DNA from: an uncultured Actinomycetota bacterium
Lineage (GTDB): Bacteria; Actinomycetota; Humimicrobiia; Humimicrobiales; Humimicrobiaceae
Reading direction: 5' to 3'
Length of the DNA stretch: 38,787 nt
Assembly (NCBI GenBank): GCA_964424685.1
Contig: CAYRJH010000005.1
Span: 1 to 38,787 of the forward strand
Made by a program: the position numbers and the translations under genes. This document shows, in pieces, positions 1,868-14,471 of the stretch. Each line of letters starts with the position of its first letter. The first letter of the stretch is position 1. The notes beneath the pieces are model-generated. The model was not told where the DNA came from. It saw only the letters and a program-made list of their open reading frames with translations, and ran no database searches.

Positions 1868-3049
1868 TCAGGGGCGTTTTAATTTAGAACGAGTTGTATT
1901 TACCCAGTATTTGTCTGTTTCATCCCCCCGCAGTTCAAGCGCTTTTTCAAAATAGGGCAGCGCTTCTTCATAGCGGCCCATGTTATATAAAGTATTACCG
2001 ATCCAGTTATAATTTGATATATTTGTTTTATCATCCTGCATCTCAAGCGATTTTTTAAGGTAAGGCAGCGCTTCTTCATGGCGGCCCAATCTGGAGAGAG
2101 TGGTACCGAGCCAGTTGTAGTCTATCCAGCTACCCTGCAGCTTAACCGCTTTTTCAAAATGAGGCAGTGCTTCTTCGTAGCGGCCCATGTTAGAGAGCGC
2201 AGTGCCGAGCCAACTGTAGTCTATCCCATCACCCTTTATTTTAACCGCTTTTTCAAAATAGGTCAGCGCTTCTTCGTGTCTACCCATATTGGTGAGCGTG
2301 GTGCCCAGCCAGCTGTAGTTTGATATATTTGTTTTATCATCCTGCATCTCAAGCGATTTTTTAAGGTAAGACAACGCTTCTTCGTAGCGGCCCAATCTGG
2401 AAAGATCAACACCGAGCCAGTTGTAGTCTATCCAGTTACCCTGCAGCTTTACCGCTTTTTCAAAATAGGGCAATGCTTCTTCGTAGCGGCCCTGGTTAGA
2501 GAGCTCTCTTCCTTTACTGGCGGCATCTTGTCCGGTTAGAGTATCTTTAGCCTTGTCGACGGTACTTTGAAAATTGGTAAAATCACCTGATTCGCGAAGT
2601 AATTTCTTATATTCTTCACTTTCCATATTTTCTTTAGCATCAATTTTTTTATTAATTAATGTCAATATTATTTCAATAAGTTTTTTAATATGATTTTCCA
2701 TCGGTTTCGTAAGAGCATCCTGCCAATGCGTATTTAACAAATAATATTTCATCGCACCTTTAGGCTCGATATCTTCAATTCTGAAAGGAATGACAGTTAC
2801 TTCAGAATTAAATGCAAGAGATATTTCTCTTGATACCTGTCTGGAATTATTTGAGTATGAAGAAAATATAAGAATCAATAGTTTACTTCGGGTAATTGCA
2901 CCTTCAATGGATTCAGCCCAGTCCAGCCCCGGCAGAATATCTCTGGGGGCGATCCAGCACCTTATTTTAGCAGCTTCAAGTGAAGCGCAGACTGCATCTG
3001 CTACTAATTTATCTTTTGTAGAATATGAAATAAATACATCATGAGCCAT
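1868..3049 (-). CDS. TIR domain protein with a C-terminal array of six TPR-like repeats (393 aa)
   Basis: Residues 3-125 carry bacterial TIR_2-type motifs: DVFISYSTKDK, IRCWIAPRDILPG, LILIFSSYSNNSRQVSREISLA (putative catalytic Glu75) and IPFRIEDIEP...HWQDA. Residues ~175-385 hold six repeats of 33/36 aa with the pattern GRYEEALPYFEKAVKLQG-WIDYNWLG. A GAGGA Shine-Dalgarno sits 9 nt upstream of the ATG, and the gene starts 33 bp downstream of the preceding gene. Confidence 0.85.
   Translation of the reverse strand: MAHDVFISYSTKDKLVADAVCASLEAAKIRCWIAPRDILPGLDWAESIEGAITRSKLLILIFSSYSNNSRQVSREISLAFNSEVTVIPFRIEDIEPKGAMKYYLLNTHWQDALTKPMENHIKKLIEIILTLINKKIDAKENMESEEYKKLLRESGDFTNFQSTVDKAKDTLTGQDAASKGRELSNQGRYEEALPYFEKAVKLQGNWIDYNWLGVDLSRLGRYEEALSYLKKSLEMQDDKTNISNYSWLGTTLTNMGRHEEALTYFEKAVKIKGDGIDYSWLGTALSNMGRYEEALPHFEKAVKLQGSWIDYNWLGTTLSRLGRHEEALPYLKKSLEMQDDKTNISNYNWIGNTLYNMGRYEEALPYFEKALELRGDETDKYWVNTTRSKLKRP
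1895..2527 (-). repeat. In-frame tandem coding repeats (TPR-like units), including a 306-bp (3-repeat) duplication of high nucleotide identity
   Basis: The segment from ~2013 is repeated from ~2319, an offset of 306 bp. The first 52 nt are identical and I hand-counted about 17 differences over ~237 nt. A further partial copy lies at ~1895-2010. Confidence 0.8.
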
Positions 3050-3082
3050 AATATATATTCCTCATCTAAATTAAATAATGTA

Positions 3083-5749
3083 TTATCGCTTAATCTCTTT
3101 GTTTAATTTAATCATGGTATACCCGGCTTTTGCAAGAATTTTATTAATGCCTTTTACCAGAGTACGGTCTTTTTCCTTCTCACTTTCAGAAAGCTTTTCC
3201 CAGGATATAAGACATTTATGCAGTTTTGCTGTCTTATCAGTTTTTTTTGCATAATGCCATCCATTATTAAGCTTTTCCTGCACCCATCGCTCATGTTCCA
3301 TCTTTGCCAGTTTGTCGATTTCATCATTTTGAAATTTACCCGGAGTCTCATTACCTCTGGTTTGAACCATTGCATATCCAACACTTGCCAGTTTATTAGG
3401 GATATCACTGACATTATTCCGGTTGTTTTCTTTATTATCTTCAGATAATTCAATATAGGGTTTAAGTAAACTATGTTCTTTTTTGCTATTTTGTGTTACC
3501 GGCCCATACTTATATCCTTTCGCAGTCAAATCTTCACAGAATACATCATGCGCCGCTTCCGCAAGTTTTTCCAGAAGATTTTTATTAAGCTCCATACGAT
3601 GCATTAGGGTATAAAAATCCTGGCCGTCTGCATGCAAATTCAATTGCGCTTCAGAAGGTATGCTTGAAGGCTCAAAGCTTGTCTTGCCTGACAGCTGACT
3701 TATGGAAACAATTGTCTCCATAGAGCGCGCTCCATGCTTATATTGCCTGGTTAATAAAAAGGCACGAAGCACTCCTTCGTCAATGCTTGTAATTCTTTTC
3801 CCTCCATAACTGTGCAGAATCTGGGGTTCGTTGCGGTCAAAGATTGACCGCAGGACAATTGCACGCCGGATGATATAGTAGGGATCTTTTATTTGCCCAT
3901 AGTCGTCTTTATTTTCCTGCCGGTTTGGGCCGAGGATATTTAAAAATCCTTTCAGGCGGCTTATAAAATCAGGTAGTTTTACCGCTCCGCTTTCCCTCTC
4001 GCTAATATTTGTCCCAAATGTTTCCATACTGTGGCTTGTCCCTCCTGCAAATACAAAAATACCCCTGCCTATATGGTGGGTCATTTGCCCTTCCTGGAAT
4101 TTTCCATCTTGCATGGGGGCAAGAAAATACCGCAGCCAGCCCAGAGTTTGATTTTGCAGAGAAGTATCAAATTCATCCCAGAAAACAAGTGATATCTTGC
4201 CAGATAACGCCCTGTCACGTATTTGATGATAGGCATCAAACAAATCCCCGGGTCCTCCAAGCTGTGAAAGATTAAAAGTTATCTCCTCAATTTCCCCCTG
4301 CCGTACCGAACTTGCTACCTGCTTTACTGCGAATGATTTGCCGGAGCCCGGCGGACCAAAGACCGCTATCGATAAAGGCGTTTTCTGATAACTCTCGCAA
4401 TATTCATTAATGAGATTGCTAATATTGTGTAAAGCTTCGATCTCCCTGCGGTCTATTGTCTGGAGTTTGCCAAACTTCCCCATAGGCACTTCAGGTAAAG
4501 CATGTTCCAGACCTTCGCGTACAATCAGCCTTGCTATATTCTCAAGAGAATCAGGACTTTTATCTTCAAGTATTGCCCAGAAACGGTCTGGTTCTTCAGG
4601 AGAAGTTTCGGAAAGTGCCTGTGCAGGATTTTTAATTGGCACAACTGATAAAAAACTGCAATCTTCTTCTAATTTAGCTGCTACCCCGGCTGCCGGGAAA
4701 GCCAGATTTATTTTCTTTGTTTCATTGCTGGCACGGCCATATCCCATTATATGAAGAAATCGCATAGCGCTGATCCCTGATTGAATGCCACGGGACATGT
4801 CTGGTTCCGGGGTATCCAGCATCAGCTCCCGGGCAATACTGCCGGCAAGACACGATGTATAGCCAATCATATATCCTTTATAACGGTTTTCCCATTCACC
4901 TTCCATGGCAGACGGGTCAAAAAAAAGAATGGCATCCGGTGAAGAATCTGTTTTTTTAGAAAGAAGAGCTGCGCCTGCCATATCAAAAGATATGATTATA
5001 TGAGCGCACTGCGTAATCTCATTTATATGAGGGTTATATAGAAGTTCCCACATCAAGTCCTGTGCAGTCCGTTCCCATGATACCTGGCGGCTTATGTGGA
5101 CCTGGCTGCGGCGCAGATCATCAGCTGTTATAATCACTATTAGCCGGTCTGCATGATTTTGTAAAAGATGATCCCACAGTTTACCCTGCACCACTGGCCA
5201 GGCCATTTTAAGGATAATCCAGGGTTTTGAGTTGCCCCTGGAAAGAGATTGGGGCCAGTATTCCTGGGCATCGCGGAACCCAAGAGCAGCATCATCCAGG
5301 ATTACAAGGTCCGGATTTACTGGATCGTCAACAACTTTTTTCCAGCTATCTGACGAAGACATACCATCATATGCCTTGCATAAACCTAAAAATTCCTGAA
5401 CCCGCCATACTTTTTCTCCCTTATTAGATGCATGCACATCTATTTTAAAAGGTGCCCATATAGCATAAGAATGATGGAAGTGGTTGTTACAGGGATTTAT
5501 AGGGCTTCGAGGTGCAGAGATTTGCCTGACTGTAATACTGGTTTGCCCTGTTTGATTTAAGTTTCTGGCAATACTTTTAACAAGGTCAGCCAGCATGGTT
5601 ACACCCCCTATCTGGCAAAATGAGGTGGTTAAGTTCTCTGCATTCCATACGTTCATAATGACATCTGCCCGCCGCACTCTGGCTATATTCCAATCAATAG
5701 TTACATCTCCTGTAACAACTACAGTCTTTGTATTTTTTTTCTTATTCAT
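3083..5749 (-). CDS. Large multidomain ATPase (888 aa): unassigned N-terminal alpha/beta domain (~aa 1-350), AAA+ ATPase (~aa 425-690), two C-terminal RyR-type repeats (~aa 722-795 and 806-880)
   Basis: AAA+ motifs are Walker A AVFGPPGSGKS (aa 462-472, nt ~4334-4366), Walker B LVFWDEFD (aa 521-528), IFVFAGGTS (sensor-1 region) and KHGARSMETIV (sensor-2-like). The RyR repeats read LAEAAHDVFCEDLTAKGYKYGPV..KEHSLLKPYIELSEDNKENNRN...LASVGY and LAKMEHERWVQEKLNNGWHYA...KLHKCLISWEKLSESEKEKDRT...LAKAGY. The N-domain alternates hydrophobic strand-like stretches (VVVTGDVTIDW, LVILDDAALGF, WIILKM, LIVIITADD, HIIISFDMAGAALL, AILFFDP), which is reminiscent of ribokinase/PfkB-like folds. That last point is inference only. 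Confidence 0.8.
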   Translation of the reverse strand: MNKKKNTKTVVVTGDVTIDWNIARVRRADVIMNVWNAENLTTSFCQIGGVTMLADLVKSIARNLNQTGQTSITVRQISAPRSPINPCNNHFHHSYAIWAPFKIDVHASNKGEKVWRVQEFLGLCKAYDGMSSSDSWKKVVDDPVNPDLVILDDAALGFRDAQEYWPQSLSRGNSKPWIILKMAWPVVQGKLWDHLLQNHADRLIVIITADDLRRSQVHISRQVSWERTAQDLMWELLYNPHINEITQCAHIIISFDMAGAALLSKKTDSSPDAILFFDPSAMEGEWENRYKGYMIGYTSCLAGSIARELMLDTPEPDMSRGIQSGISAMRFLHIMGYGRASNETKKINLAFPAAGVAAKLEEDCSFLSVVPIKNPAQALSETSPEEPDRFWAILEDKSPDSLENIARLIVREGLEHALPEVPMGKFGKLQTIDRREIEALHNISNLINEYCESYQKTPLSIAVFGPPGSGKSFAVKQVASSVRQGEIEEITFNLSQLGGPGDLFDAYHQIRDRALSGKISLVFWDEFDTSLQNQTLGWLRYFLAPMQDGKFQEGQMTHHIGRGIFVFAGGTSHSMETFGTNISERESGAVKLPDFISRLKGFLNILGPNRQENKDDYGQIKDPYYIIRRAIVLRSIFDRNEPQILHSYGGKRITSIDEGVLRAFLLTRQYKHGARSMETIVSISQLSGKTSFEPSSIPSEAQLNLHADGQDFYTLMHRMELNKNLLEKLAEAAHDVFCEDLTAKGYKYGPVTQNSKKEHSLLKPYIELSEDNKENNRNNVSDIPNKLASVGYAMVQTRGNETPGKFQNDEIDKLAKMEHERWVQEKLNNGWHYAKKTDKTAKLHKCLISWEKLSESEKEKDRTLVKGINKILAKAGYTMIKLNKEIKR

Positions 5750-5805
5750 TGATAAATACCCCCATACTTATAGTAATATGGTTAAATTTTAATAACATTA
5801 AATCA

Positions 5806-5825
5806 TGCATATTTGCAATATTGCA
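5806..5825. promoter_or_regulatory. Candidate operator upstream of the ATPase/TIR operon: three TGCA cores 8 bp apart, including the perfect 12-bp palindrome TGCAATATTGCA
   Basis: The sequence TGCATATTTGCAATATTGCA lies at 5806-5825, with the palindrome at 5814-5825. It is 57-76 nt upstream of the ATG at 5749, inside the divergent intergenic region. Confidence 0.2.
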
Positions 5826-6057
5826 TCCAGTAGTTCATTATTCTTTTCTGGTTTCTACAGTTTTATTAACATTTCTGGATAATAATATCATATTTATTAT
5901 TTTTCTTTAAAACCTATATTTTTTGGAAAATGTACGCTATGATCTATTATATTATTATTGCCATACATTGTTACCTATAATAAAGCAATAATAAATACCT
6001 GGCTTCTATGTTGGCGGCCAAAAGATTAAATAATGAGGTAAGGACATTATCGCCCCC

Positions 6058-6086
6058 TTGACAATACCTATAACTAATAATACACT
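6058..6086 (+). promoter_or_regulatory. Candidate sigma-70-type promoter for the RRM protein gene
   Basis: TTGACA (6058-6063), a 17-nt spacer, then TACACT (6081-6086). This would give a leader of about 115 nt ending in AGGAGG 6 nt before the ATG at 6207. Confidence 0.3.
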
Positions 6087-6206
6087 TAAACCCTCTATTT
6101 TGTTTAATGATATTTTAATTAAGAGCAGGTCACTACTTTCTATTACCTCTCCAAAAGAAATATTAAGAAGATTATAGGGAAATAATATTTTTTTAAGGAG
6201 GTAAGA

Positions 6207-6473
6207 ATGCAAGGTAGCAAACTATATGTTGGAAATTTCGGATACTCCACAATTGATTCACAATTGGAAAAACTGTTTTCTCCATTTGGACAGATTAAGA
6301 GTGTTACTGTCATAGGAAACAAGGGTTTTGGATTTGTTGAGATGTCAAGCACATCAGAAGCTGAAAAAGCAAAAGAAGCTTTAGATGGTTCAGACTTTGA
6401 AGGACGCACTTTAAGAGTTGACGAAGCTCGTCCGCAAAGCAGCAGGCCAGAAAGAAACTTCAGGAGATATTAA
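6207..6473 (+). CDS. Small RRM (RNP-1) type RNA-binding protein (88 aa)
   Basis: RNP2 motif KLYVGNF and RNP1 motif KGFGFVEM are present, with a typical ...GRTLRVDEARP tail. A strong AGGAGG RBS precedes the start. Confidence 0.9.
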   Translation: MQGSKLYVGNFGYSTIDSQLEKLFSPFGQIKSVTVIGNKGFGFVEMSSTSEAEKAKEALDGSDFEGRTLRVDEARPQSSRPERNFRRY

Positions 6474-6487
6474 ATATAATCAAAACT

Positions 6488-6528
6488 AACTGCATACAGG
6501 TTCTTTAAAAGAACTCTTATGCAGTTTT
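6488..6528 (+). terminator. Stem-loop just after the RRM gene (first of two tandem hairpins)
   Basis: AACTGCATA (6488-6496) pairs with TATGCAGTT (6518-6526). An inner GGTTC/GAACT helix sits within it. It is followed by TTGATTT, a weak U-tract. Confidence 0.4.
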
Positions 6529-6542
6529 GATTTCTCCATATT

Positions 6543-6589
6543 AATGATTTGCTGCTTATACATTAATTTAAACAGCAAATCATTTTTTT
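6543..6589 (+). terminator. Rho-independent terminator (second hairpin)
   Basis: A perfect 12-bp stem forms between AATGATTTGCTG (6543-6554) and CAGCAAATCATT (6573-6584). It runs directly into a T-run through 6589. Confidence 0.6.
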
Positions 6590-6685
6590 AACAAATAATT
6601 AGAAAGTAATTCGATGCCAGGTTCTCTATTGCAATAAAAGGTCGACCTGCTCTATAATTTTACACACACAGGAGGACAAGTTCTT

Positions 6686-7999
6686 ATGAAATTAGAGCTA
6701 ATTGTGCCGGCTACCCGGGAAAACTTAATGAATCGAAAGAAGACACCATGCCAGCATCTTGGCCTGGCTCTGGTTGCAGCCTTAACCCCGCCAGAGGTCG
6801 AAGTCTCTTTAACTGATGAGAATGTCACAACTATTGATTACCAGAAGGAAATAGACTTAGTGGGAATAACAGCAATAACTATTACAGCGAAACGCGCCTA
6901 TGAAATCGCCGATACTTTTAGAGCGAAGGGCGTTAAGGTTATCCTGGGGGGCAGCCACCCCAGTGCTCTGCCTGAAGAGGCAAGCCAGCATGCCGATGCT
7001 GTAGTAATCGGAGAAGCCGAAGGAACCTGGAAAAAAGTAATCGAAGATTTTAAGGCAAACAAACTGCAAAAGATTTACAGCCAGCGCAAGCAGCCCAGCT
7101 TGCTCAACTTACCTTTACCCCGCAGAGACTTATTCTTCAATGGAGCGTACCTTTTCCAGAACACAATCTCAACCACCAGAGGCTGCCCCTATGCTTGCTC
7201 CTTCTGCTCTGTTACTTCATTCTTCGGCCATACTTATCGTTGCCGCCCGATAGAGGAGATCCTCAAGGAGATAGAAACATTGGATCGCAAAAAAATCATC
7301 GTTTTCGTTGATGATAATATCGTCGGTAACACCAGGTTCGCTAAAGAGCTTTTCCGCGCCCTTATACCTTACAGAATCAAGTGGATTGCCCAGGCCTCAA
7401 TAACCGTAGCAAGAGATGACGATTTACTAAAACTCGCAGCAGCCAGCGGTTGCATTTTCCTGCTTATTGGTTTTGAGACAATTAACCCCGGCAATCTTGT
7501 AGCACTTGGTAAGAAATTGAATAAGGTGAACGAATATGAAATGGTGATTAAAAAGATCCACTCTTATGGTATTGCTATCCATGGTTTCTTTGTTCTTGGT
7601 TTAGACGAAGACGATGAAGATGTTTTCGAACGAACTATCCATTTTGTCAATAAAACACGAATGGATAGCGCTCAATTTGCCTGGCTCGTGCCGTATCCAG
7701 GAACCGCTTTATTCGAATCTTTGAATAATGCAGGACGGATAATAACCAAAGACTGGTCGCAATATGAATCTAATGTTGTATTCGATCCAAAGCTAATGAC
7801 TCGGGAGATTCTGCAAAAAGGGCGTGACCGAGTCTGGCGCGAAGTATACAGCCTACCCTCTATTTTGAGGAGGTGGAGATTTATGCACCGCCATCCGCTT
7901 TCATTCTGGGTGGTGAATCTTTATTACCGCTCTTTCTGGCTGAGAAAATTCAGAACCAATAGAGCCGGCAAAAAGTCCGAATCTCCAGTTTGCTTCTAA
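6686..7999 (+). CDS. B12-binding-domain radical SAM protein (class B rSAM, substrate unknown)
   Basis: The N-terminal domain is cobalamin-binding-like (LVGITAITITAKRAYEIAD..GVKVILGGSHPS). The radical SAM cluster motif is RGCPYACSFCSV (CxxxCxxC). An AGGAGG RBS precedes the start. Confidence 0.88.
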   Translation: MKLELIVPATRENLMNRKKTPCQHLGLALVAALTPPEVEVSLTDENVTTIDYQKEIDLVGITAITITAKRAYEIADTFRAKGVKVILGGSHPSALPEEASQHADAVVIGEAEGTWKKVIEDFKANKLQKIYSQRKQPSLLNLPLPRRDLFFNGAYLFQNTISTTRGCPYACSFCSVTSFFGHTYRCRPIEEILKEIETLDRKKIIVFVDDNIVGNTRFAKELFRALIPYRIKWIAQASITVARDDDLLKLAAASGCIFLLIGFETINPGNLVALGKKLNKVNEYEMVIKKIHSYGIAIHGFFVLGLDEDDEDVFERTIHFVNKTRMDSAQFAWLVPYPGTALFESLNNAGRIITKDWSQYESNVVFDPKLMTREILQKGRDRVWREVYSLPSILRRWRFMHRHPLSFWVVNLYYRSFWLRKFRTNRAGKKSESPVCF

Positions 8000-8297
8000 A
8001 TTTATTAAAGTTCTGCTTATTAAGCCAGCCTAAAAACAGGGTAAAATCTTTTAAAGTTTGCATAAGTTAAATTATATTGCCCGCTATTGCCACTGCCGTC
8101 TGTTTATTTTAAAAATTTTTTTTATAAAAGAAATAGAAAATTACAGGCAAATAACCGTTTAATACTTATGAATTTTAGAAGCAAATCCTTATGAATTAAA
8201 AATAATTGCTATTACTATTTTTAAAAAAATAGTAAAGTCTTATTATAAATATATTAAAATATTACAAATTTTATATTTTTTACAGAAAGGATGAGTT

Positions 8298-9272
8298 ATG
8301 GAAATTTTTAGCATACTACTGATTATTGCAGGACTGGTACTTCTTATTATCGGAGCAATAAATACTCTCCAGATGATTTTTATCATCGGGATAGTACTGG
8401 CAAGTGTAGGTTTGCTGCTTTTTATTTTTACAGGCTTCAGGACGGTAAGGCCCACTCAAAAAGGCATTATTGAAAGATTTGGGAAATACATAAGAACCAA
8501 GGAGCAGGGACTTACATGGATTATTCCGCTGATTGAAAAGATGTATAGAGTAAATATAACGGAACAAATGATTGACATTCCGCCGCAGATGGTTATAACC
8601 CAGGATAAGCTTAATGCATCAGTTGATGCCGTAGTTTACTACCGTATAAAAGATGTGAAAGCAAGCATTTATAATGTCGATGATCACAGGTCCCAGCTTA
8701 TGAGCCTTGCCAGGACTACACTCCGAGCAGTAATCGGAAATATGACATTAACAGATGCAAATGAAAACAGGGCCTCAATAAATGAAAAAGTTGAACTTGT
8801 CCTCGATAAGGAAACGGACAGCTATGGTGTAGAAGTGCTGCGATGTGAAATCCAGAAAATCGAACCTCCTTCGGATGTTCAGGCTTCAATGAATAATGTT
8901 GTCAAGGCTGAACAGGAAAAAATCGCTGCAAAGGATTATGCAACTGCTACGGAAACAAAGGCTGACGGTGAAAAAAGAGCTGAAATCAAGAAAGCTGAAG
9001 GTATAAAACAGGGCCTGATACTTTCTGCAGAAGGAAAAGGAGAAGCCATCAAGATAGTCGCAAATGCCGAAGCCGACAGGATAAAAATAGTTAATGAAGC
9101 TGCAGATAAATATTTCATTGGTAATGCGCAGGCGCTAAAGAAGCTTGAAACAGTGGAAATCGCCCTTAAAGAAAACGTTAAATTTATCCTGGATTCCGAT
9201 AAGATCACAACAATAGTAACCGATGCTGCGGGTGTTTCGCCGATACCGATGGAAAAAAAGCCGAAGGAATAA
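8298..9272 (+). CDS. SPFH/Band 7 (stomatin/prohibitin-like) membrane protein
   Basis: Two N-terminal hydrophobic helices are followed by an SPFH core (VRPTQKGIIERFGKY...GLTWIIPLIEKM...VDAVVYYRI) and an Ala/Lys/Glu-rich coiled-coil tail. Confidence 0.9.
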   Translation: MEIFSILLIIAGLVLLIIGAINTLQMIFIIGIVLASVGLLLFIFTGFRTVRPTQKGIIERFGKYIRTKEQGLTWIIPLIEKMYRVNITEQMIDIPPQMVITQDKLNASVDAVVYYRIKDVKASIYNVDDHRSQLMSLARTTLRAVIGNMTLTDANENRASINEKVELVLDKETDSYGVEVLRCEIQKIEPPSDVQASMNNVVKAEQEKIAAKDYATATETKADGEKRAEIKKAEGIKQGLILSAEGKGEAIKIVANAEADRIKIVNEAADKYFIGNAQALKKLETVEIALKENVKFILDSDKITTIVTDAAGVSPIPMEKKPKE

Positions 9273-9454
9273 CCTTAAAAATATTTATATATTAAATTTA
9301 TAGCAGTAATGACCTGCATTCAAAAAACAAATGAGGCCAGTGGCTTCTGAGTTGTTAAGCGTACAGAGCGTATACTTTTTTCTATAACCCATTTGTAATA
9401 CTAAAGCTCTGTAAGTATTTTCTTATTCTCTACACTAGATTTCCTTTTTTATCT

Positions 9455-10681
9455 TCATTGCTTTTTATCTGCAATGTCTTTTGCTTTTTGTTCAATAAGA
9501 CCAAGGTCTACTTCACCATAAGTATTTTTAGTTTCTACTGCAGCCCTTGCTACACTTACCGCAACCGCAGGCAAAACCCTCCTGTCAAACGGTTTTGGGA
9601 TAATGTAATCTTCCCTCAGGTCGCCTTCTATTATTTCTGAAATTGCTTTTGCCGCAGCGATTTTCATTTCCCTGTTTATCTCTAAAGCCCCTGCATCAAG
9701 AGCTCCCCTGAATATTCCCGGAAATGCCAGTACATTATTTACCTGATTGGGATAATCACTTCTTCCTGTAGCAATAATTTTCACTCCGCATCTTTTTGCA
9801 AGGCCGGGTTTAATTTCCGGTTCAGGATTAGCCAGAGCAAATACAATCGGACTGGTCTTCATTTTTTTTATCATATCTTCAGTCAACACATCAGCAGTTG
9901 ATACTCCGATAAATATATCGGCATCCTCCAGGGCACAGTAAAGATCGCCCTTTAAATTATTTAAATTCGTAGATTCTGCCAGTTTTCGCTTGGCCGGATT
10001 TAGATTTTCTCTTCCATTGTATATTATCCCGTTTCTATCACAGATGATTATATCGGATACACCGACATAGTTAAGCAGATCTGCAATGGATGTACCGGCT
10101 GCTCCTGCTCCGTTTATAACTATTTTTACATCCTTTATATCTTTCTTGTATATCTTTAGTGCATTGAACAATCCTGCCAGAGTTACAACAGCAGTGCCAT
10201 GCTGGTCGTCATGGAATATAAGCATATTTGTTTCTTCTTTTAACCTCTTTTCAATATCAAAACATCTCGGAGCCGCTATATCCTCAAGATTTATTCCCGC
10301 AAATGATGGCTCCAGCATTTTTATGGTTTTAACTATTGCTTCATTATCCTGGCTGTCTATACATATAGGGAACGCTGATACGCCGCCAAACTGTTTAAAT
10401 AATACACACTTCCCTTCCATAACCGGAAGCGCCGCCCTGGCTCCGATATTCCCAAGCCCCAGGACTGCAGACCCGTCGGTCACTACCGCAATCATATTGC
10501 CTCTGGATGTATATGTATTCAGTTCCCCGGGATTTTTTGCAATTACACGGCATGGTTCCGCAACGCCGGGTGAATAGGCAAGAGACAGGTCGTGTTCATT
10601 TTCGGTTTTCACCTTGCTTATTACATCAATCTTGCCCCTGTTCTTCTTATGCATTTCAAGTGCTTCATCATAAATATTCAA
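9455..10681 (-). CDS. NAD(P)-dependent malic enzyme (short form)
   Basis: Diagnostic motifs are LSLAYSPGVAEPC, VVTDGSAVLGLGNIG, INLEDIAAPRCF, FHDDQHGTAVV and INGAGAAG. Confidence 0.92.
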   Translation of the reverse strand: MNIYDEALEMHKKNRGKIDVISKVKTENEHDLSLAYSPGVAEPCRVIAKNPGELNTYTSRGNMIAVVTDGSAVLGLGNIGARAALPVMEGKCVLFKQFGGVSAFPICIDSQDNEAIVKTIKMLEPSFAGINLEDIAAPRCFDIEKRLKEETNMLIFHDDQHGTAVVTLAGLFNALKIYKKDIKDVKIVINGAGAAGTSIADLLNYVGVSDIIICDRNGIIYNGRENLNPAKRKLAESTNLNNLKGDLYCALEDADIFIGVSTADVLTEDMIKKMKTSPIVFALANPEPEIKPGLAKRCGVKIIATGRSDYPNQVNNVLAFPGIFRGALDAGALEINREMKIAAAKAISEIIEGDLREDYIIPKPFDRRVLPAVAVSVARAAVETKNTYGEVDLGLIEQKAKDIADKKQ

Positions 10682-10903
10682 TTGATCTTCACCTTACATT
10701 CCTTTATTTTTATTAATTACTTTAATTCTAATACTTATTTATATTAATCATACTAGTTTTTATTTTCCCTGGCACTATATTAGCATTAATCTGTAATTAC
10801 TTTCAAAATACAAAAATACCGGGTCTATTATTTTAATATATGCACTCTTTAATATTAAGTTTACAATTTTATTAATTACAAATAATAACATATAATAAAT
10901 TCC

Positions 10904-11656
10904 ATGGAATATTTTGCAGATACGGATATCGGAAAACATAGAGAAAAAAACGAAGATTATTTTTATGCCGGTGGTAATCTTTTTTTGGTGGCTGACGGTA
11001 TGGGAGGACATAGAGCCGGTGAGATAGCAAGTAAACTTGCCATAGAAACTTTCATAAAAGAGTTTAATCTAGAACCGTTAGATGATACAAAAAAAACTTT
11101 AACTGACAAAAAAAACAAAATTTTAACCTCGCGTGAAATAAAAAAGCTTTTAGCTTCCGCTGCCAATAATGCCAACAGAGAAGTATTTAAAAAAGCGGTT
11201 TCACAACCAGAATATTATAGTATGGGGACAACTCTTACCGGAAGTTATATTTACAAAGATAAAGCATATATAATACACATTGGCGACAGCAGACTTTACA
11301 TCAAGAGAAGCAATAAACTTAAATTACTGACTTCGGACCACACCATCGTAGGAGAACTCTTTAGAAGAGGAGAAATAAGCTATGATGCTACATTCAATCA
11401 TCCTCAAAGAAACTACCTTACCAATGTTATCGGTGTAACTGAACATATTGAACCTGATTTTGATTCATATAAAATCTTACCGGAAGATATAATTATTATA
11501 TGCTCCGATGGGCTTAATTCCATGTTAAGAGACAAGGATATCTTTAACATTACCGACAGATATAAACATACTAAGGATATTGTAAAAAATCTTATAAAAG
11601 AAGCAATAAAAAAAGGCGGCCTTGATAATATAACAATTATAGCTATTAAAATTTAA
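10904..11656 (+). CDS. prpC: PP2C-family Ser/Thr protein phosphatase (Stp/PrpC-like)
   Basis: Motifs are DIGKHREKNEDYF, VADGMGGHRAGEIAS, IGDSRLY, SDGL and GGLDNITII. It lies immediately upstream of the kinase gene, with a 5-nt gap. Confidence 0.9.
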   Translation: MEYFADTDIGKHREKNEDYFYAGGNLFLVADGMGGHRAGEIASKLAIETFIKEFNLEPLDDTKKTLTDKKNKILTSREIKKLLASAANNANREVFKKAVSQPEYYSMGTTLTGSYIYKDKAYIIHIGDSRLYIKRSNKLKLLTSDHTIVGELFRRGEISYDATFNHPQRNYLTNVIGVTEHIEPDFDSYKILPEDIIIICSDGLNSMLRDKDIFNITDRYKHTKDIVKNLIKEAIKKGGLDNITIIAIKI

Positions 11657-11661
11657 AACAC

Positions 11662-13491
11662 ATGACTGATAACCACCTTGAAAAATTTAAACTGATATCA
11701 AAAAGATATAAGATTATTAAAAAAATCGCATCAGGAGGAATGGCTGATGTTTTTCTGGGTGATGATTTAAAACTGGATAGAAAAGTAGCAATAAAAATAT
11801 TAGCCTCCAATTACGCAAGCGATAGAAATTTTGTAGCAAGATTTAAAAGCGAAGCTCAAATCCTTGCCAGGCTGAACCATCCCAATATTGTCCAGGTATA
11901 TGACTGGGGAGAATTCAATGGTTTCTATTATATCTGCATGGAATATATCGAAGGAGAAAGCTTAAAAGAAATAATTGAAAAAAAGGGTCCGCTTCCTCCT
12001 GAAACCGCTGCTGATTTTGCCATACAGATCTCAAATGCCCTGCTCACAGCTCACAAAAATAATCTTATCCACCGGGACATCAAACCGCAAAATATACTTA
12101 TAACACCTGAAGGAAAAGTAAAAGTCACAGATTTCGGCATAGCAAAATCTCTCATTACCGATGTTACCAAAACAATAAATATAATGGGAACGGCTCATTA
12201 CATTTCCCCTGAACAGGCAAAAGGAGAAGTCCTTGATCACCGGACTGATATTTATTCCCTCGGAATTGTTATGTATGAAATGCTTACCGGAGATATTCCT
12301 TTTAGGGGAGGGGGTTCAATTGATATCAGTCTTAAACATATAAATGAAAAACCCTTAAAACCTTCAGAATTGATAAAAAATATCCCGGATAAACTTGAAA
12401 AAATAGTTATGCATTGTCTGGAAAAAGATCCTTCCGTACGCTATCCCGGTCTTAGAGAACTTATCAGTGACCTTCAAAAATACGGGACTGAAAAACCTTT
12501 AAGCTTCGCCACGAGAAGACAGAGTTTAGATAAGATGGGCATATTTATGGAAAAAATGAAATCTCCGCTGGTAAGTATACTTGCAGCTATTTTTATGTTT
12601 TTTTTCTTAATCCTATCCATTATTTTCGGTTATAAATATTATAACAACGAACACACTGCCGGCAATATTGTACCGGTACCTTATATTGAGAATATCCCTG
12701 CTGAAAATGCAGAAAAAATATTATTGCTGTTTGACCTTAATTTGAAAATAAGTGGTGAGACTTATAATTCCGAAATCCCCCAGGGATCAATAGTAAGCCA
12801 AAATCCTGAGTCCGGTGAAAATATGCCGGCCGGCAGCGACATCGCTGTTACTGTCAGTAAAGGGCCTGAAATCACTTCAATTTTAACCCCGAATTTAGCA
12901 GGACTGGATTTTGAAGACGCTATAAAATTACTTAAAGAGTATGGGCTGGCAACAGGAGACGTCTCAAGAAAATATTCCAATACTTTTACAGAAAATATTG
13001 TAATAAGCCAGGCGCCGCAATTTAATGAACAGGTCAAACCCGGAGGATCTGTAAATCTGGTTGTAAGTAAAGGTGAAGAAATCATTGTAATCCCTGATAT
13101 TATCGGACAGGATTTTATAACTGCCTTTAATTATCTTCAATCCTTAGGACTTGTTGTAAAAAGCAGTAAAGCTCCGATAATAGAAGGTAATAACATAAAT
13201 GAACCGGGTAAAATTGTAAAGGTAATACCCTCCCCCGGCTCAAAAGTTAAGATTAATAGTTTAGTTGAGCTGGTAATTTCAACTAACGCGCAGCTGGTTT
13301 ATATTCCTGATCTTTTTTCAAAAAACATCGATATTGCCGGAGCCGAACTTGATTCCGCTAATTTAAAATATGAGATTAGTTATATAGAAACAGATTACTC
13401 GGTGCAGAAAGATCTCGTTATGGGCCAGGATCCGGAAGCTCATACCTATGTTTCTCCTGATTCTGTCGTCATTTTATTTGTTGGAAGCTAA
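11662..13491 (+). CDS. prkC: Ser/Thr protein kinase with a transmembrane segment and extracellular PASTA repeats (PknB/PrkC-like)
   Basis: Kinase motifs are GGMADVF, VAIK, HRDIKPQNIL, DFGIA and SPEQ. A TM helix (LVSILAAIFMFFFLILSIIFGY) follows, then about four PASTA-like repeats. Confidence 0.92.
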   Translation: MTDNHLEKFKLISKRYKIIKKIASGGMADVFLGDDLKLDRKVAIKILASNYASDRNFVARFKSEAQILARLNHPNIVQVYDWGEFNGFYYICMEYIEGESLKEIIEKKGPLPPETAADFAIQISNALLTAHKNNLIHRDIKPQNILITPEGKVKVTDFGIAKSLITDVTKTINIMGTAHYISPEQAKGEVLDHRTDIYSLGIVMYEMLTGDIPFRGGGSIDISLKHINEKPLKPSELIKNIPDKLEKIVMHCLEKDPSVRYPGLRELISDLQKYGTEKPLSFATRRQSLDKMGIFMEKMKSPLVSILAAIFMFFFLILSIIFGYKYYNNEHTAGNIVPVPYIENIPAENAEKILLLFDLNLKISGETYNSEIPQGSIVSQNPESGENMPAGSDIAVTVSKGPEITSILTPNLAGLDFEDAIKLLKEYGLATGDVSRKYSNTFTENIVISQAPQFNEQVKPGGSVNLVVSKGEEIIVIPDIIGQDFITAFNYLQSLGLVVKSSKAPIIEGNNINEPGKIVKVIPSPGSKVKINSLVELVISTNAQLVYIPDLFSKNIDIAGAELDSANLKYEISYIETDYSVQKDLVMGQDPEAHTYVSPDSVVILFVGS

Positions 13492-13496
13492 ATTTA

Positions 13497-14471
13497 TTAT
13501 CCGGTATTAAAAACTCCCATTGACTCAAACTTTTGAGCTCTTGCAGATTTTAACTCTTCTCCCGGAACATGCTCATATTTTTGCAGTGCATTTATAATAT
13601 ATCTTTTTACTATTTTAACCATTCTTTCAGGGGCATTCTGAGCTCCGCCCAGCGGTTCGGGAATAATCCTGTCTATTACTTTAAGTCTGATAAGATCCCT
13701 TGAAGTAAGCTTCAGTTCTCTTGCGGCTAATTTGGTTCCGGAAGGATTTTTCCATAAAATTGCCGCACAACCCTCAGGGGAAATAACAGAATAAGTTGAA
13801 TTCTCAAGCATAAAAACTTCATTGCCGACAGCCAGTGCCAGCGCTCCACCGCTCCCGCCTTCACCTATCAGGATAGAAATAACCGGAGTTTTAACTTCAA
13901 ACATTACTGAAATACTTTTTGCAATGGCGCCTGCCTGGCCGTTATCTTCGGCTTCAATAGCGGGATATGCGCCCGGGGTATCTATAAATGTTATTATCGG
14001 AAATCCAAATCTGTCAGCCAGTCTCATAATCCGCTGCGATTTCCTGTATCCCTGCGGTACGCTCATACCAAAGTTATACTCCATCCTCTCCTTTATATCC
14101 CTGCCTTTATTATGCCCTATGACAGCGACAGTTTTACCATTGATTTTCCCAAGCCCTGCTATGATTGACCTGTCTTCATTACCCAGTCTGTCACCGCAAA
14201 GAGTAATAAAATCATCAAAGATGCCGCTTATATAATCCTTACACTGCGGCCGTTTTTCATTTCTGGAAAGCTCTACGATTTTCCAAACTCTCCTGGCATC
14301 TTTTTCCACCCTTTTATAACTTTCTATTTTCTGAGCCAGGTCTCTTTCAGCATCCTTGAAGTGTATGCCAGTAAAAAAGGGGATTTTTTTTAATTTCTCA
14401 AGCTTGGAAAGCGACCCTAAAATCTCTTTAAGATAACTTTTTGGAATTTCTTCCAGTTTTTTTAAATCCAT
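13497..14471 (-). CDS. accA: Acetyl-CoA carboxylase carboxyltransferase subunit alpha
   Basis: Motifs are GDRLGNEDRSIIAGLG, NFGMSVPQGYRK, ITFIDTPGAYPAIEAEDNGQA and GEGGSGGALA. Confidence 0.93.
   Translation of the reverse strand: MDLKKLEEIPKSYLKEILGSLSKLEKLKKIPFFTGIHFKDAERDLAQKIESYKRVEKDARRVWKIVELSRNEKRPQCKDYISGIFDDFITLCGDRLGNEDRSIIAGLGKINGKTVAVIGHNKGRDIKERMEYNFGMSVPQGYRKSQRIMRLADRFGFPIITFIDTPGAYPAIEAEDNGQAGAIAKSISVMFEVKTPVISILIGEGGSGGALALAVGNEVFMLENSTYSVISPEGCAAILWKNPSGTKLAARELKLTSRDLIRLKVIDRIIPEPLGGAQNAPERMVKIVKRYIINALQKYEHVPGEELKSARAQKFESMGVFNTG

Follow-up and report, generated by a model that had tools for sequence, protein, structure and literature searches.

This analysis concerns a two-gene operon on the minus strand of a 38,787-nt stretch of DNA from an uncultured Actinomycetota bacterium (contig CAYRJH010000005.1), referred to here as the window. 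Gene 1, hereafter the ATPase, encodes an 888-aa protein in which a predicted ribokinase-like N-terminal domain and an AAA+ module precede a tandem RyR domain, and gene 2 encodes a 393-aa protein in which a TIR domain is followed by tetratricopeptide (TPR) repeats. In a first-pass annotation, made from the sequence alone, the pair had been proposed as a TIR-based immune or conflict module. It is now read, tentatively and with a probability somewhat short of even, as a minimal Thoeris-like module in which an NAD+-derived signal would be received by the RyR domain. A larger network, apparently undescribed, is represented in its smallest form by the pair in the window; in this network the conserved ATPase is found beside TIR genes and several other partners. 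The features of the two genes are as follows.

3083..5749, minus strand: gene 1, 888 aa, with ribokinase-like, AAA+ and tandem RyR regions (open reading frame; Pfam RyR and AAA)
4610..5749, minus strand: predicted ribokinase/PfkB-fold domain, gene 1 residues ~1-380 (AlphaFold2 and Foldseek)
3650..4432, minus strand: AAA+ ATPase module, gene 1 residues ~440-700 (Pfam AAA and motifs)
3350..3592, minus strand: RyR repeat 1, gene 1 residues ~720-800 (Pfam, RyR matches in the PDB, alignment with phage protein gp68)
3104..3337, minus strand: RyR repeat 2, gene 1 residues ~805-882 (Pfam, alignment with gp68)
3050..3082, minus strand: intergenic spacer of 33 nt, with a GAGGA Shine-Dalgarno sequence at 3063-3059 (read from the sequence)
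1868..3049, minus strand: gene 2, 393 aa, TIR-TPR protein (open reading frame; Pfam TIR_2 and TPR)
2630..3049, minus strand: TIR domain, gene 2 residues ~1-140, with the Glu75 codon at 2825-2827 (Pfam TIR_2)
1910..2527, minus strand: TPR array of six repeats (Pfam TPR_1, six stretches)

The RyR domain and its predicted ligand pocket

The two C-terminal RyR repeats seen in the first-pass annotation are confirmed both by Pfam, where RyR (PF02026) matches two stretches of gene 1 (E 2.4e-27; 95.5 bits against a cut-off of 27.4), and by Foldseek, in which the last ~185 aa superpose as a complete tandem domain of the Repeat12 (R12) type. Both R12 and R34 domains were matched (best match 6uhi, E 1.8e-9), with target-normalised TM-scores of 0.5-0.64. 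Superposition on human RyR3 R12 with AMP-PCP (9l91) gave a target-normalised TM-score of 0.60, and the value for ADP-bound R12 is also about 0.6.

Phage RyR proteins that act against Thoeris have been described in two independent preprints from 2026. The RyDEP protein (gp78) of mycobacteriophage DyoEdafos is an RyR-fold glycosidase that cleaves 2'/3'-cyclic ADP-ribose (cADPR) and has H75, W78, H100 and D117 as its key residues, while other phage homologues are nanomolar sponges (PMC13232231). The RyR Tad protein (gp68) of Pectobacterium phage CB1 binds 3'cADPR with a dissociation constant of 43 nM via H129/W132, H154 and D171, and mutation of these residues lowers the binding approximately 100-fold (10.64898/2026.06.04.730250). 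When gp68 is aligned with gene 1, these four residues correspond, residue for residue, to H819/W822/H844/D861 of RyR repeat 2, the spacing of which (+3/+25/+42) is the same as that of the RyDEP residues. The tetrad is kept in 22-24 of 24 homologues, and the pocket positions of repeat 1, H734/F737/H759/N776, in 23-24 of them. Repeat 2 is therefore predicted, from the alignment, to carry the full ligand tetrad for a cADPR isomer. A parallel between RyR domains and cADPR had been called speculative in the first-pass annotation; with literature support from the phage proteins and the aligned residues, it now appears to be the best-supported lead.

The phage RyDEP and RyR Tad proteins resemble gene 1 in belonging to PF02026 and in having the same four pocket residues aligned. 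However, they are small single-repeat homodimers, serving as sponges or glycosidases against the host, whereas the C-terminus of gene 1, a cellular ATPase of 888 aa with a TIR gene beside it, is a covalent tandem repeat in which one site is full and the other is H/F/H/N. This setting plausibly makes it a host-side receptor. A tblastn search with repeat 2 against 50,697 phage records returned only two weak matches. The R12 region of eukaryotic ryanodine receptors shares the tandem two-repeat fold, 18-29% identity and the conserved pocket residues, but there it is part of a 5,000-aa Ca2+ channel, rather than being carried on an AAA+ enzyme or, in related loci, on a membrane protein with two transmembrane segments (2TM) and a TrkA_N domain.

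The operon and its TIR-TPR protein

Gene 1 ends in a TAA stop codon (3085-3083), and the GAGGA sequence in the 33-nt spacer stands 9 nt before the ATG of gene 2 at 3049. No terminator-like site was found when the spacer was scanned. The two genes form an operon, and the coordinates, gap and Shine-Dalgarno sequence on which the first-pass annotation had based the same claim are borne out by open reading frame calling and reading of the spacer.

Within gene 2, Pfam places TIR_2 at residues 5-112 (E 1.7e-21), followed directly by the TPR stretches, so that the protein has no NTPase of its own, as had been claimed. E75 is the counterpart, by alignment, of the conserved Glu in bacterial PdTIR (structure 3h16), and neither it nor F6 or Y9 varies among the 40 TIR domains aligned (that of the window and 39 linked to the ATPase). 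Both the intact Glu at the catalytic position and the six TPR repeats of the earlier description are thus confirmed. The PADLOC matches to gene 2 are generic TIR/TPR models, with the ThsB model at E 0.022, and by profile gene 2 is classed as a TIR protein and not as a member of the ThsB family. The DNA of the TPR array (window 1913-2504) holds a 286-nt direct repeat of 83% identity, and Tandem Repeats Finder reports a period of 99 nt with 4.7 copies and 68% matches at 2035-2504. This repetition at the DNA level suggests a fairly recent expansion of repeats in the putative sensor region. The same gene 2 follows the ATPase in two of the related genomic loci collected for this analysis, L001 (93% identity) and L081 (99% identity). 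These loci are given L-numbers, and representative homologues of the ATPase are given P-numbers.

The AAA+ module and the N-terminal domain

The Pfam AAA match in gene 1 is weak but above threshold (25.3 bits against a cut-off of 21.2), and with it all of the Pfam families expected for the two proteins (TIR_2, TPR, AAA and RyR) were recovered. The motifs recorded in the first-pass annotation, Walker A GPPGSGKS (K471), Walker B LVFWDEFD (D525/E526) and GARSM (R675, sensor-2), are present and are invariant in 24 full-length homologues. T571 and R598 are invariant in the same homologues and stand at the sensor-1 and Arg-finger positions, which were assigned by position and not by structure. There are weak phmmer matches of the module to classical-clade AAA proteins, namely Cdc48 D2 (E 0.0018), Rpt3 and Vps4. 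The module appears to be classical-clade-like, and the full set of AAA+ motifs, from Walker A to sensor 2, is accounted for. A STAND NTPase was considered and rejected, since nSTAND_NTPase5 scores 20.1 bits, below its cut-off of 34; the NTPase is of the AAA+ rather than the STAND type, as had been stated. The pair differs accordingly from NLR proteins of the STAND/Avs type, gene 2 running from TIR to TPR with no NTPase and gene 1 having no STAND match above threshold.

The N-terminal domain (N-domain) of gene 1, left unassigned in the first-pass annotation, is now predicted to have a ribokinase/PfkB fold. An AlphaFold2 model of residues 1-440 has a mean confidence (pLDDT) of 81.3 and a predicted TM-score (pTM) of 0.80. 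When the modelled domain was compared with the PDB by Foldseek, all of the top 50 matches were ribokinase-family kinases, the best being 4e8z (E 4.9e-10, probability 1.00), with target-normalised TM-scores of 0.46-0.60. No Pfam family, PF00294 included, matches residues 1-430. A link to PfkB at the sequence level was tried and set aside, the N-domain profile having 0 matches at E <= 10 among PDB sequences; the PfkB likeness therefore stands at the level of the fold only. In the homologue alignments, G14, D15, T17, D19, W20 and G48-G49 are invariant, which places a G-D-x-T-x-D N-terminal strand and a GG dipeptide (G48 G49) at the positions expected for the ribokinase family. No GAGD-like Asp was recognised after the strand at 272-277 in the sequence and the secondary structure of the model, read without structural superposition. 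The domain is rich in invariant polar residues, which would fit an enzyme or a specific ligand-binding site. It shares the fold, the GD.T.D strand and the GG dipeptide with ribokinase/PfkB kinases such as HldA, LacC, ribokinase and pseudouridine kinase, but differs from them in its ~10% identity, the lack of a Pfam or profile match, the unrecognisable GAGD motif and its fusion to AAA+ and RyR.

Family size and domain shuffling

Gene 1 has 1,691 detectable homologues, the top 120 of which are mostly full-length, with 52-99% identity. Among genomes representing one species each in GTDB, the ATPase is present at no fewer than 534 loci (at least this number), spanning the Chloroflexota, Acidobacteriota, Planctomycetota, Bacillota, Ignavibacteriota, Deltaproteobacteria and Methanomicrobia/Euryarchaeota. 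Cultured organisms with a homologue include Maioricimonas sp. JC845 (L072) and Clostridium estertheticum CF009, in the latter on plasmid pCF009-b. The mean column identity across phyla is 67% in an alignment of 24 homologues. The N-domain is found in 2,197 protein clusters at 50% identity, 890 of them at E <= 1e-30, and a fold can thus now be assigned to the N-domain of approximately 2,200 clusters, a domain that matches no Pfam family.

The RyR domain is not fixed in this architecture. RyR-less ATPases of ~730 aa make up 26 of 150 representatives, and in L084 a complete RyR-less ATPase gene (345-2555, 736 aa) is followed after 5 bp by a gene for a RyR domain fused to a SLOG-like protein (2560-3627). 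Single chains joining ribokinase-like, AAA+, RyR and SLOG-like regions (~1,050-1,190 aa) account for seven of the eight ATPase representatives that reach 1,000 aa. Examples of this shuffling, besides the L084 genes, are P0124, P0140, P0158, P0162, P0211, P0234 and P0266. When the homologues were checked for a RyR domain exchanged for another known sensor domain, none was found; the RyR-less forms and RyR-SLOG fusions were seen instead.

Partner genes of the ATPase

Partners were counted within 5 kb of the ATPase in 76 usable species-level loci. The commonest is a SLOG-like protein of ~195 aa (45 loci), followed by TIR genes (34), 2TM-TrkA_N proteins with or without RyR (24) and a large STAND/WD40 protein headed by DUF4062 (23), and one or more of these four are present in 68 of the 76 loci. 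TIR open reading frames are 15.6-fold enriched within 1 kb of the ATPase relative to the flanks at 4-10 kb (27 of 49; p = 4.5e-12), and SLOG-like ones are 52-fold enriched within 1 kb (p = 1.8e-28). The adjacency of TIR genes across genomes, put forward as a check in the first-pass annotation, therefore holds, but the two-gene pair is not the conserved core of these loci, in which the SLOG-like gene is the more frequent neighbour. In the typical full arrangement, the ATPase, SLOG-like and TrkA_N-RyR genes are on one strand with TIR/DUF4062 sensor genes around them. L014 and L069 are of the fuller type, with ATPase, SLOG-like, TrkA_N-RyR and TIR genes. The arrangement of the window, with the ATPase and TIR only, is found in nine loci. 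In nine loci a single ATPase is accompanied by at least two TIR genes. A six-frame search of the window found no SLOG-like or DUF4062 gene and none of the extra partners.

The TIR partners lie on either side of the ATPase and on either strand, and range from ~190 to 1,465 aa. Their C-terminal arrays vary too: in 39 TIR proteins that were scanned (that of the window and 38 partners), WD40 repeats were found in nine and TPR in nine. Such variety of position, orientation and array argues for repeated independent association, and a conserved ATPase with architecturally variable TIR partners fits a conserved hub with variable sensors. The same observations bear on the possibility that the signal runs the other way, the ATPase being an upstream sensor or switch that perceives a phage protein or a drop in nucleotides through its RyR and ribokinase-like domains, binds the TPR array and so activates the TIR-TPR protein to kill by NAD+ depletion. 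TPR arrays are protein-protein interaction modules, the catalytic Glu of the TIR domain is intact and the window contains no other classical effector, all of which would suit this arrangement. Yet the ATPase is far more conserved than its TIR partners, the opposite of what is expected of a pathogen sensor, and the differing arrays of the partners (TPR, WD40 and lectin-like) make a single conserved docking mode unlikely. RyR domains are, moreover, documented as binders of TIR products. This reversed direction is given only a small probability.

Profile evidence on the identity of the SLOG-like partner is weak: Pfam YAcAr matches at E 0.059, and the PADLOC model for ShosA (DprA-like) matches 4 of 24 members, with a best E of 6.4e-5. 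A search of its profile against PDB sequences gave no meaningful match. Long forms are fused at the C-terminus to SLATT_1/SLATT_3 membrane domains, the 'SLOG-associating' domains. Kinship of the DUF4062 and SLOG-like partners with TIR was considered and rejected, the hhalign probabilities for alignments derived from the loci being 1.1% and 3.7%, respectively.

The gene fusions and membrane partners have a bearing on whether the ATPase might instead clear or process the signal. Its RyR domain would then hydrolyse or sequester cADPR isomers and the ribokinase-like domain would modify the resulting ADP-ribose, either as an off-switch that prevents autoimmunity or to convert the signal for SLOG-SLATT or TrkA_N-RyR effectors. 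The positions of the RyDEP catalytic dyad (His, Asp) are kept as H819 and D861, a kinase fold directed at ribose lies beside a domain whose activity would leave a ribose with a free end, the obvious killing modules in many loci are other genes with membrane domains (SLATT and 2TM-TrkA_N-RyR), and it is the ATPase to which the SLOG-like region is joined in the seven long variants described above. However, non-catalytic sponge homologues and animal RyRs have the same His/Asp dyad, which is thus no predictor of glycosidase activity. In the window and the eight other loci that have TIR and ATPase only, there is no membrane effector, so there the ATPase or the TIR protein must be the end point. A role for the AAA+ module in a simple hydrolase or kinase is also left unexplained, and signal processing is considered distinctly unlikely.

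In loci without a TIR gene, the genes directly after the ATPase include a RelA_SpoT-TPR protein with a weak LSDAT/SLOG match, a NUDIX protein, a standalone TrkA_N protein and a DUF4062-nSTAND1/NACHT protein followed by WD40; coordinates of such neighbours are L024:12722-14788, L016:12696-13220, and L082:11198-11980 and 12107-14311.

A second RyR architecture and the reverse association

The 2TM-TrkA_N-RyR proteins are a second architecture in which RyR domains are linked to TIR genes. Proteins of this kind, of ~600 aa, adjoin genes of the window's TIR subfamily with no ATPase present (L090, L107 and L117), which constitutes a second, independent RyR-TIR link. The family is also present in 26 of the 76 ATPase loci (for example L014, L069 and L012), in which its gene comes third, behind those of the ATPase and the SLOG-like protein. 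Four of its genes are placed as follows.

L107:1948-3741, plus strand: 2TM-TrkA_N-RyR gene
L090:11227-13065, minus strand: 2TM-TrkA_N-RyR gene
L117:2649-4499, minus strand: 2TM-TrkA_N-RyR gene
L134:2623-4623, minus strand: 2TM-TrkA_N-RyR gene

In these proteins two N-terminal hydrophobic segments flank a pore-helix-like 'FWDxxYYTV' motif, with no TVGYG filter, and are followed by TrkA_N/RCK and a C-terminal tandem RyR. From these motifs, the protein may be a ligand-gated membrane channel tipped with RyR.

The association was also examined in reverse, in 80 metagenomic loci encoding the TIR subfamily of the window (47-61% identity). The ATPase is present in approximately four of these, and among the 28 with at least 3 kb of upstream flank only five have a match of any kind to the ATPase or to RyR. 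A promiscuous TIR module and an asymmetric association lower the confidence in a dedicated two-gene system. It is possible that the two genes are independent modules, the TIR-TPR protein being a self-contained sensor and NAD+-depleting NADase and the ATPase a regulatory enzyme that senses adenine nucleotides (ADP, ATP or ADP-ribose), brought together by a shared accessory locus or a loose functional association.

The weak reverse association is one of several points that favour independence and weigh against a Thoeris-like pair. The ATPase has no TIR gene in 42 of the 76 loci and no recognised partner at all in eight. On the Clostridium estertheticum plasmid pCF009-b no partner is listed beside it, in a gene table that is incomplete, and housekeeping genes flank the pair in the window. 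Binding of cADPR isomers by RyR domains is known from phage proteins alone, in two preprints, and animal R12 domains, in which the H/W/H/D residues are also conserved, bind ATP/ADP as well as dantrolene (PMC12627627, PMC13642953). The ligand of gene 1 could therefore be an ordinary adenine nucleotide. Further points against the Thoeris-like interpretation concern the protein itself and its distribution: the N-domain has neither a recognisable PfkB GAGD motif nor a sequence-profile link to PfkB, and any kinase activity is putative; the AAA+ region of the full-length model has low confidence, with pLDDT below 50 at 537-561 and 570-620; and few plasmids carry the family (3 of 72,556 records), with no homologue found when a phage collection was searched with the N-domain.

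Against independence stand the enrichment of TIR genes within 1 kb of the ATPase in many orientations and architectures, the 33-nt gap of the operon and the gaps of 6-120 nt in other loci, the adjacency of TIR to the second RyR-containing architecture, and the conservation of the module as a unit while its flanks change. This last point is evident in L001, where homology to the window (92.9% over 3,993 bp) covers the two-gene module only; the flanks differ, with two extra sugar-metabolism genes upstream and a different gene downstream, and the pair thus behaves as a unit. Two independent modules are considered unlikely, although this alternative retains appreciable weight.

Plasmid pA of Methylobacterium sp. 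FF17 (L167, NZ_CP107533.1:1567-4299 and 5696-11944) carries a homologue of the ATPase that adjoins a transposase and a protein of the SIR2 family longer than 2,000 aa, the latter being another NAD+-linked neighbour.

Proposed mechanism

In the Thoeris-like reading, we infer a signal that passes from gene 2 to gene 1. The TIR-TPR protein would be both the variable sensor and the signal generator, its TPR array recognising the trigger and its TIR domain (Glu75) converting NAD+ to an ADP-ribose-derived signal, for example a cADPR isomer. The tandem RyR domain of the 888-aa protein would bind this ligand via the H819/W822/H844/D861 pocket, and binding would switch the AAA+ module, probably via assembly of an oligomer or via ATPase activity. 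The AAA+ switch would in turn control the ribokinase-fold N-domain as the output, which would most likely act on or consume a ribose-containing nucleotide metabolite or ATP and so lead to cell arrest. In most other genomes, the ATPase would work together with the SLOG-like protein, sometimes fused to the ATPase or to SLATT, with the 2TM-TrkA_N-RyR protein, and with at least one TPR/WD40 sensor headed by TIR or DUF4062.

Genomic context

A look-up by exact sequence showed no record of the window protein, and the neighbouring genes of the pair were read from P0001, which is 99% identical to it. In the window and this relative the flanks encode an RRM protein, a radical-SAM enzyme, Band_7, malic enzyme, a PP2C/PASTA-kinase pair, a LacI regulator and an ABC transporter. 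The neighbours are thus housekeeping genes, as first reported, and not defence genes, which is another point against a defence role. By correspondence with L081 (window 11662-13491 and 10904-11656), the rest of the window looks like ordinary chromosomal housekeeping, with a PASTA Ser/Thr kinase and its accompanying PP2C phosphatase, as well as malic enzyme and subunits of acetyl-CoA carboxylase.

The first-pass annotation had looked to enrichment in defence islands as a check on its proposal. Neither the Pfam scan of neighbours nor the scans for tRNA and Rfam revealed a defence-island or mobile-element context. In the Pfam scan of 140 sampled other neighbours, the top recurrent families besides TrkA_N and RyR were miscellaneous housekeeping ones and no classical defence family was among them, no island analysis with DefenseFinder or PADLOC having been made. 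The 38.8-kb window has no tRNA gene and no Rfam match, and no integrase or transposase was found among the neighbours in the window or its 99%-identical relative. In favour of an immune or conflict module there remain the operon, the TIR enrichment and the lack of a named system that matches, but no defence-island context was seen and we infer the immune function from the gene content.

The 'compositionally atypical' stretch described in the first-pass annotation proved to be so in part. The G+C content is 0.40-0.45 across the gene pair, against 0.31-0.34 in the immediate flanks and ~36% in the whole window; however, the difference is modest, and values of 0.42-0.44 are attained in coding stretches elsewhere in the window too. 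An imperfect 24-nt direct repeat with 79% identity (1746-1769 and 5805-5828, ATGCCAATTGGATATATTGCATCC / ATGCATATTTGCAATATTGCATCC) brackets the two-gene module, and its copies are near the ends of the homology to L001 (window 5826 and 1837). It could be the remnant of a cassette insertion or a chance match. As a mark of mobility it was rejected, because its seed is 11 nt long and, by a rough estimate, chance alone would yield several seed matches of this kind in 8 kb. One candidate promoter was placed as follows, about 200 nt upstream of gene 1; the number of promoter-like sites in the region is no higher than the shuffled expectation.

5946..5974, minus strand: candidate promoter-like site (consensus scan, GTAACA-17-TATAAT, 10 of 12 matches)

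The genomic context could also be taken to indicate a role in the metabolism of NAD+/ADP-ribose or of ribose nucleotides, with the ATPase as a metabolic regulator and the TIR-type proteins as enzymes of NAD+ turnover, and no part in conflict. The high conservation and broad phyletic spread of the family would be in keeping with this, as would neighbours that include YjeF_N, NUDIX and pyridine-nucleotide oxidoreductases, and its rarity on plasmids and absence from phages. The partners, on the other hand, are of the conflict type, with TIR/DUF4062 heads on giant STAND-NTPase-WD40/TPR proteins, pore-type SLATT domains and multiple paralogous TIR genes per locus, and the distribution is patchy, with gene content varying between close relatives. 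A purely housekeeping role is very improbable.

Comparison with known systems

No named defence system was matched, in agreement with the first-pass annotation: PADLOC has no match for gene 1 at E <= 0.1, ThsA included, and only generic TIR/TPR matches for gene 2, and NCBIfam returned nothing specific. A literature search of incomplete coverage found no paper with this gene combination and none joining SLOG or SLATT to RyR.

Thoeris loci often have several ThsB genes per ThsA. The ATPase loci are similar, with a TIR protein that has an intact catalytic Glu encoded beside a protein with a small-molecule-binding domain, and often several TIR genes per reader. Furthermore, RyR domains, in the form of the phage proteins, are documented binders of the Thoeris signals 2'/3'-cADPR. 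However, in place of a ThsA with SIR2, SLOG, Macro or transmembrane architecture there is a predicted ribokinase fold with AAA+ and tandem RyR, and Pfam found no SIR2, SLOG or Macro in gene 1. The TIR of the window, moreover, carries a TPR array, falls only marginally within reach of the PADLOC ThsB model and lacks a defence-island context. What is new here is the receptor/effector architecture proposed for TIR signalling of a known logic.

SLOG/SLATT 'nucleotide-centric' conflict systems are reportedly treated by Burroughs et al. (NAR, 2015). The related loci resemble such systems in their SLOG-like proteins, SLATT_1/SLATT_3 domains, TIR and DUF4062 heads on nSTAND/NACHT-WD40/TPR proteins, NUDIX and RelA/SpoT, and in their preponderance in the Chloroflexota, Acidobacteriota and Planctomycetota. 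Work from the Aravind group describes SLOG/SLATT and TIR-STAND-repeat systems of this nucleotide-centric kind (PMC7159879); RyR, ryanodine, PfkB and ribokinase are mentioned neither in that paper nor in PMC9503650. Two components, the ribokinase-AAA+-RyR hub and the TrkA_N-RyR protein, appear not to have been described before.

Implications

The role of cellular RyR-domain proteins was left open by the two phage preprints of 2026, and a candidate answer is offered by host proteins that have the same pocket residues and are encoded beside TIR genes in two architectures, one of them an AAA+ enzyme and the other a membrane protein of the RCK type. It is conceivable, although on balance doubtful, that RyR domains of the Repeat12 type are the native cellular receptors of TIR-made, ADP-ribose-derived signals in a widespread, undescribed prokaryotic network. 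The hub, its SLOG-like partner and the RyR-tipped 2TM-RCK protein, a possible signal-gated channel, would then read the signals of many variable TIR-repeat sensors; the RyR sponges and glycosidases of phages would be captured host copies, and the animal R12 would descend from an immune-signal receptor.

Were RyR the receptor, the pair would represent a new class of Thoeris-like effector, within an unrecognised multi-gene network in the Chloroflexota, Acidobacteriota, Planctomycetota and some archaea. The source of the phage RyR sponges would be explained, and the long-debated direct action of cADPR on ryanodine receptors would gain a defined pocket in which it can be tested. The finding thus reaches beyond a lone two-gene oddity, to a large conserved network centred on RyR domains.

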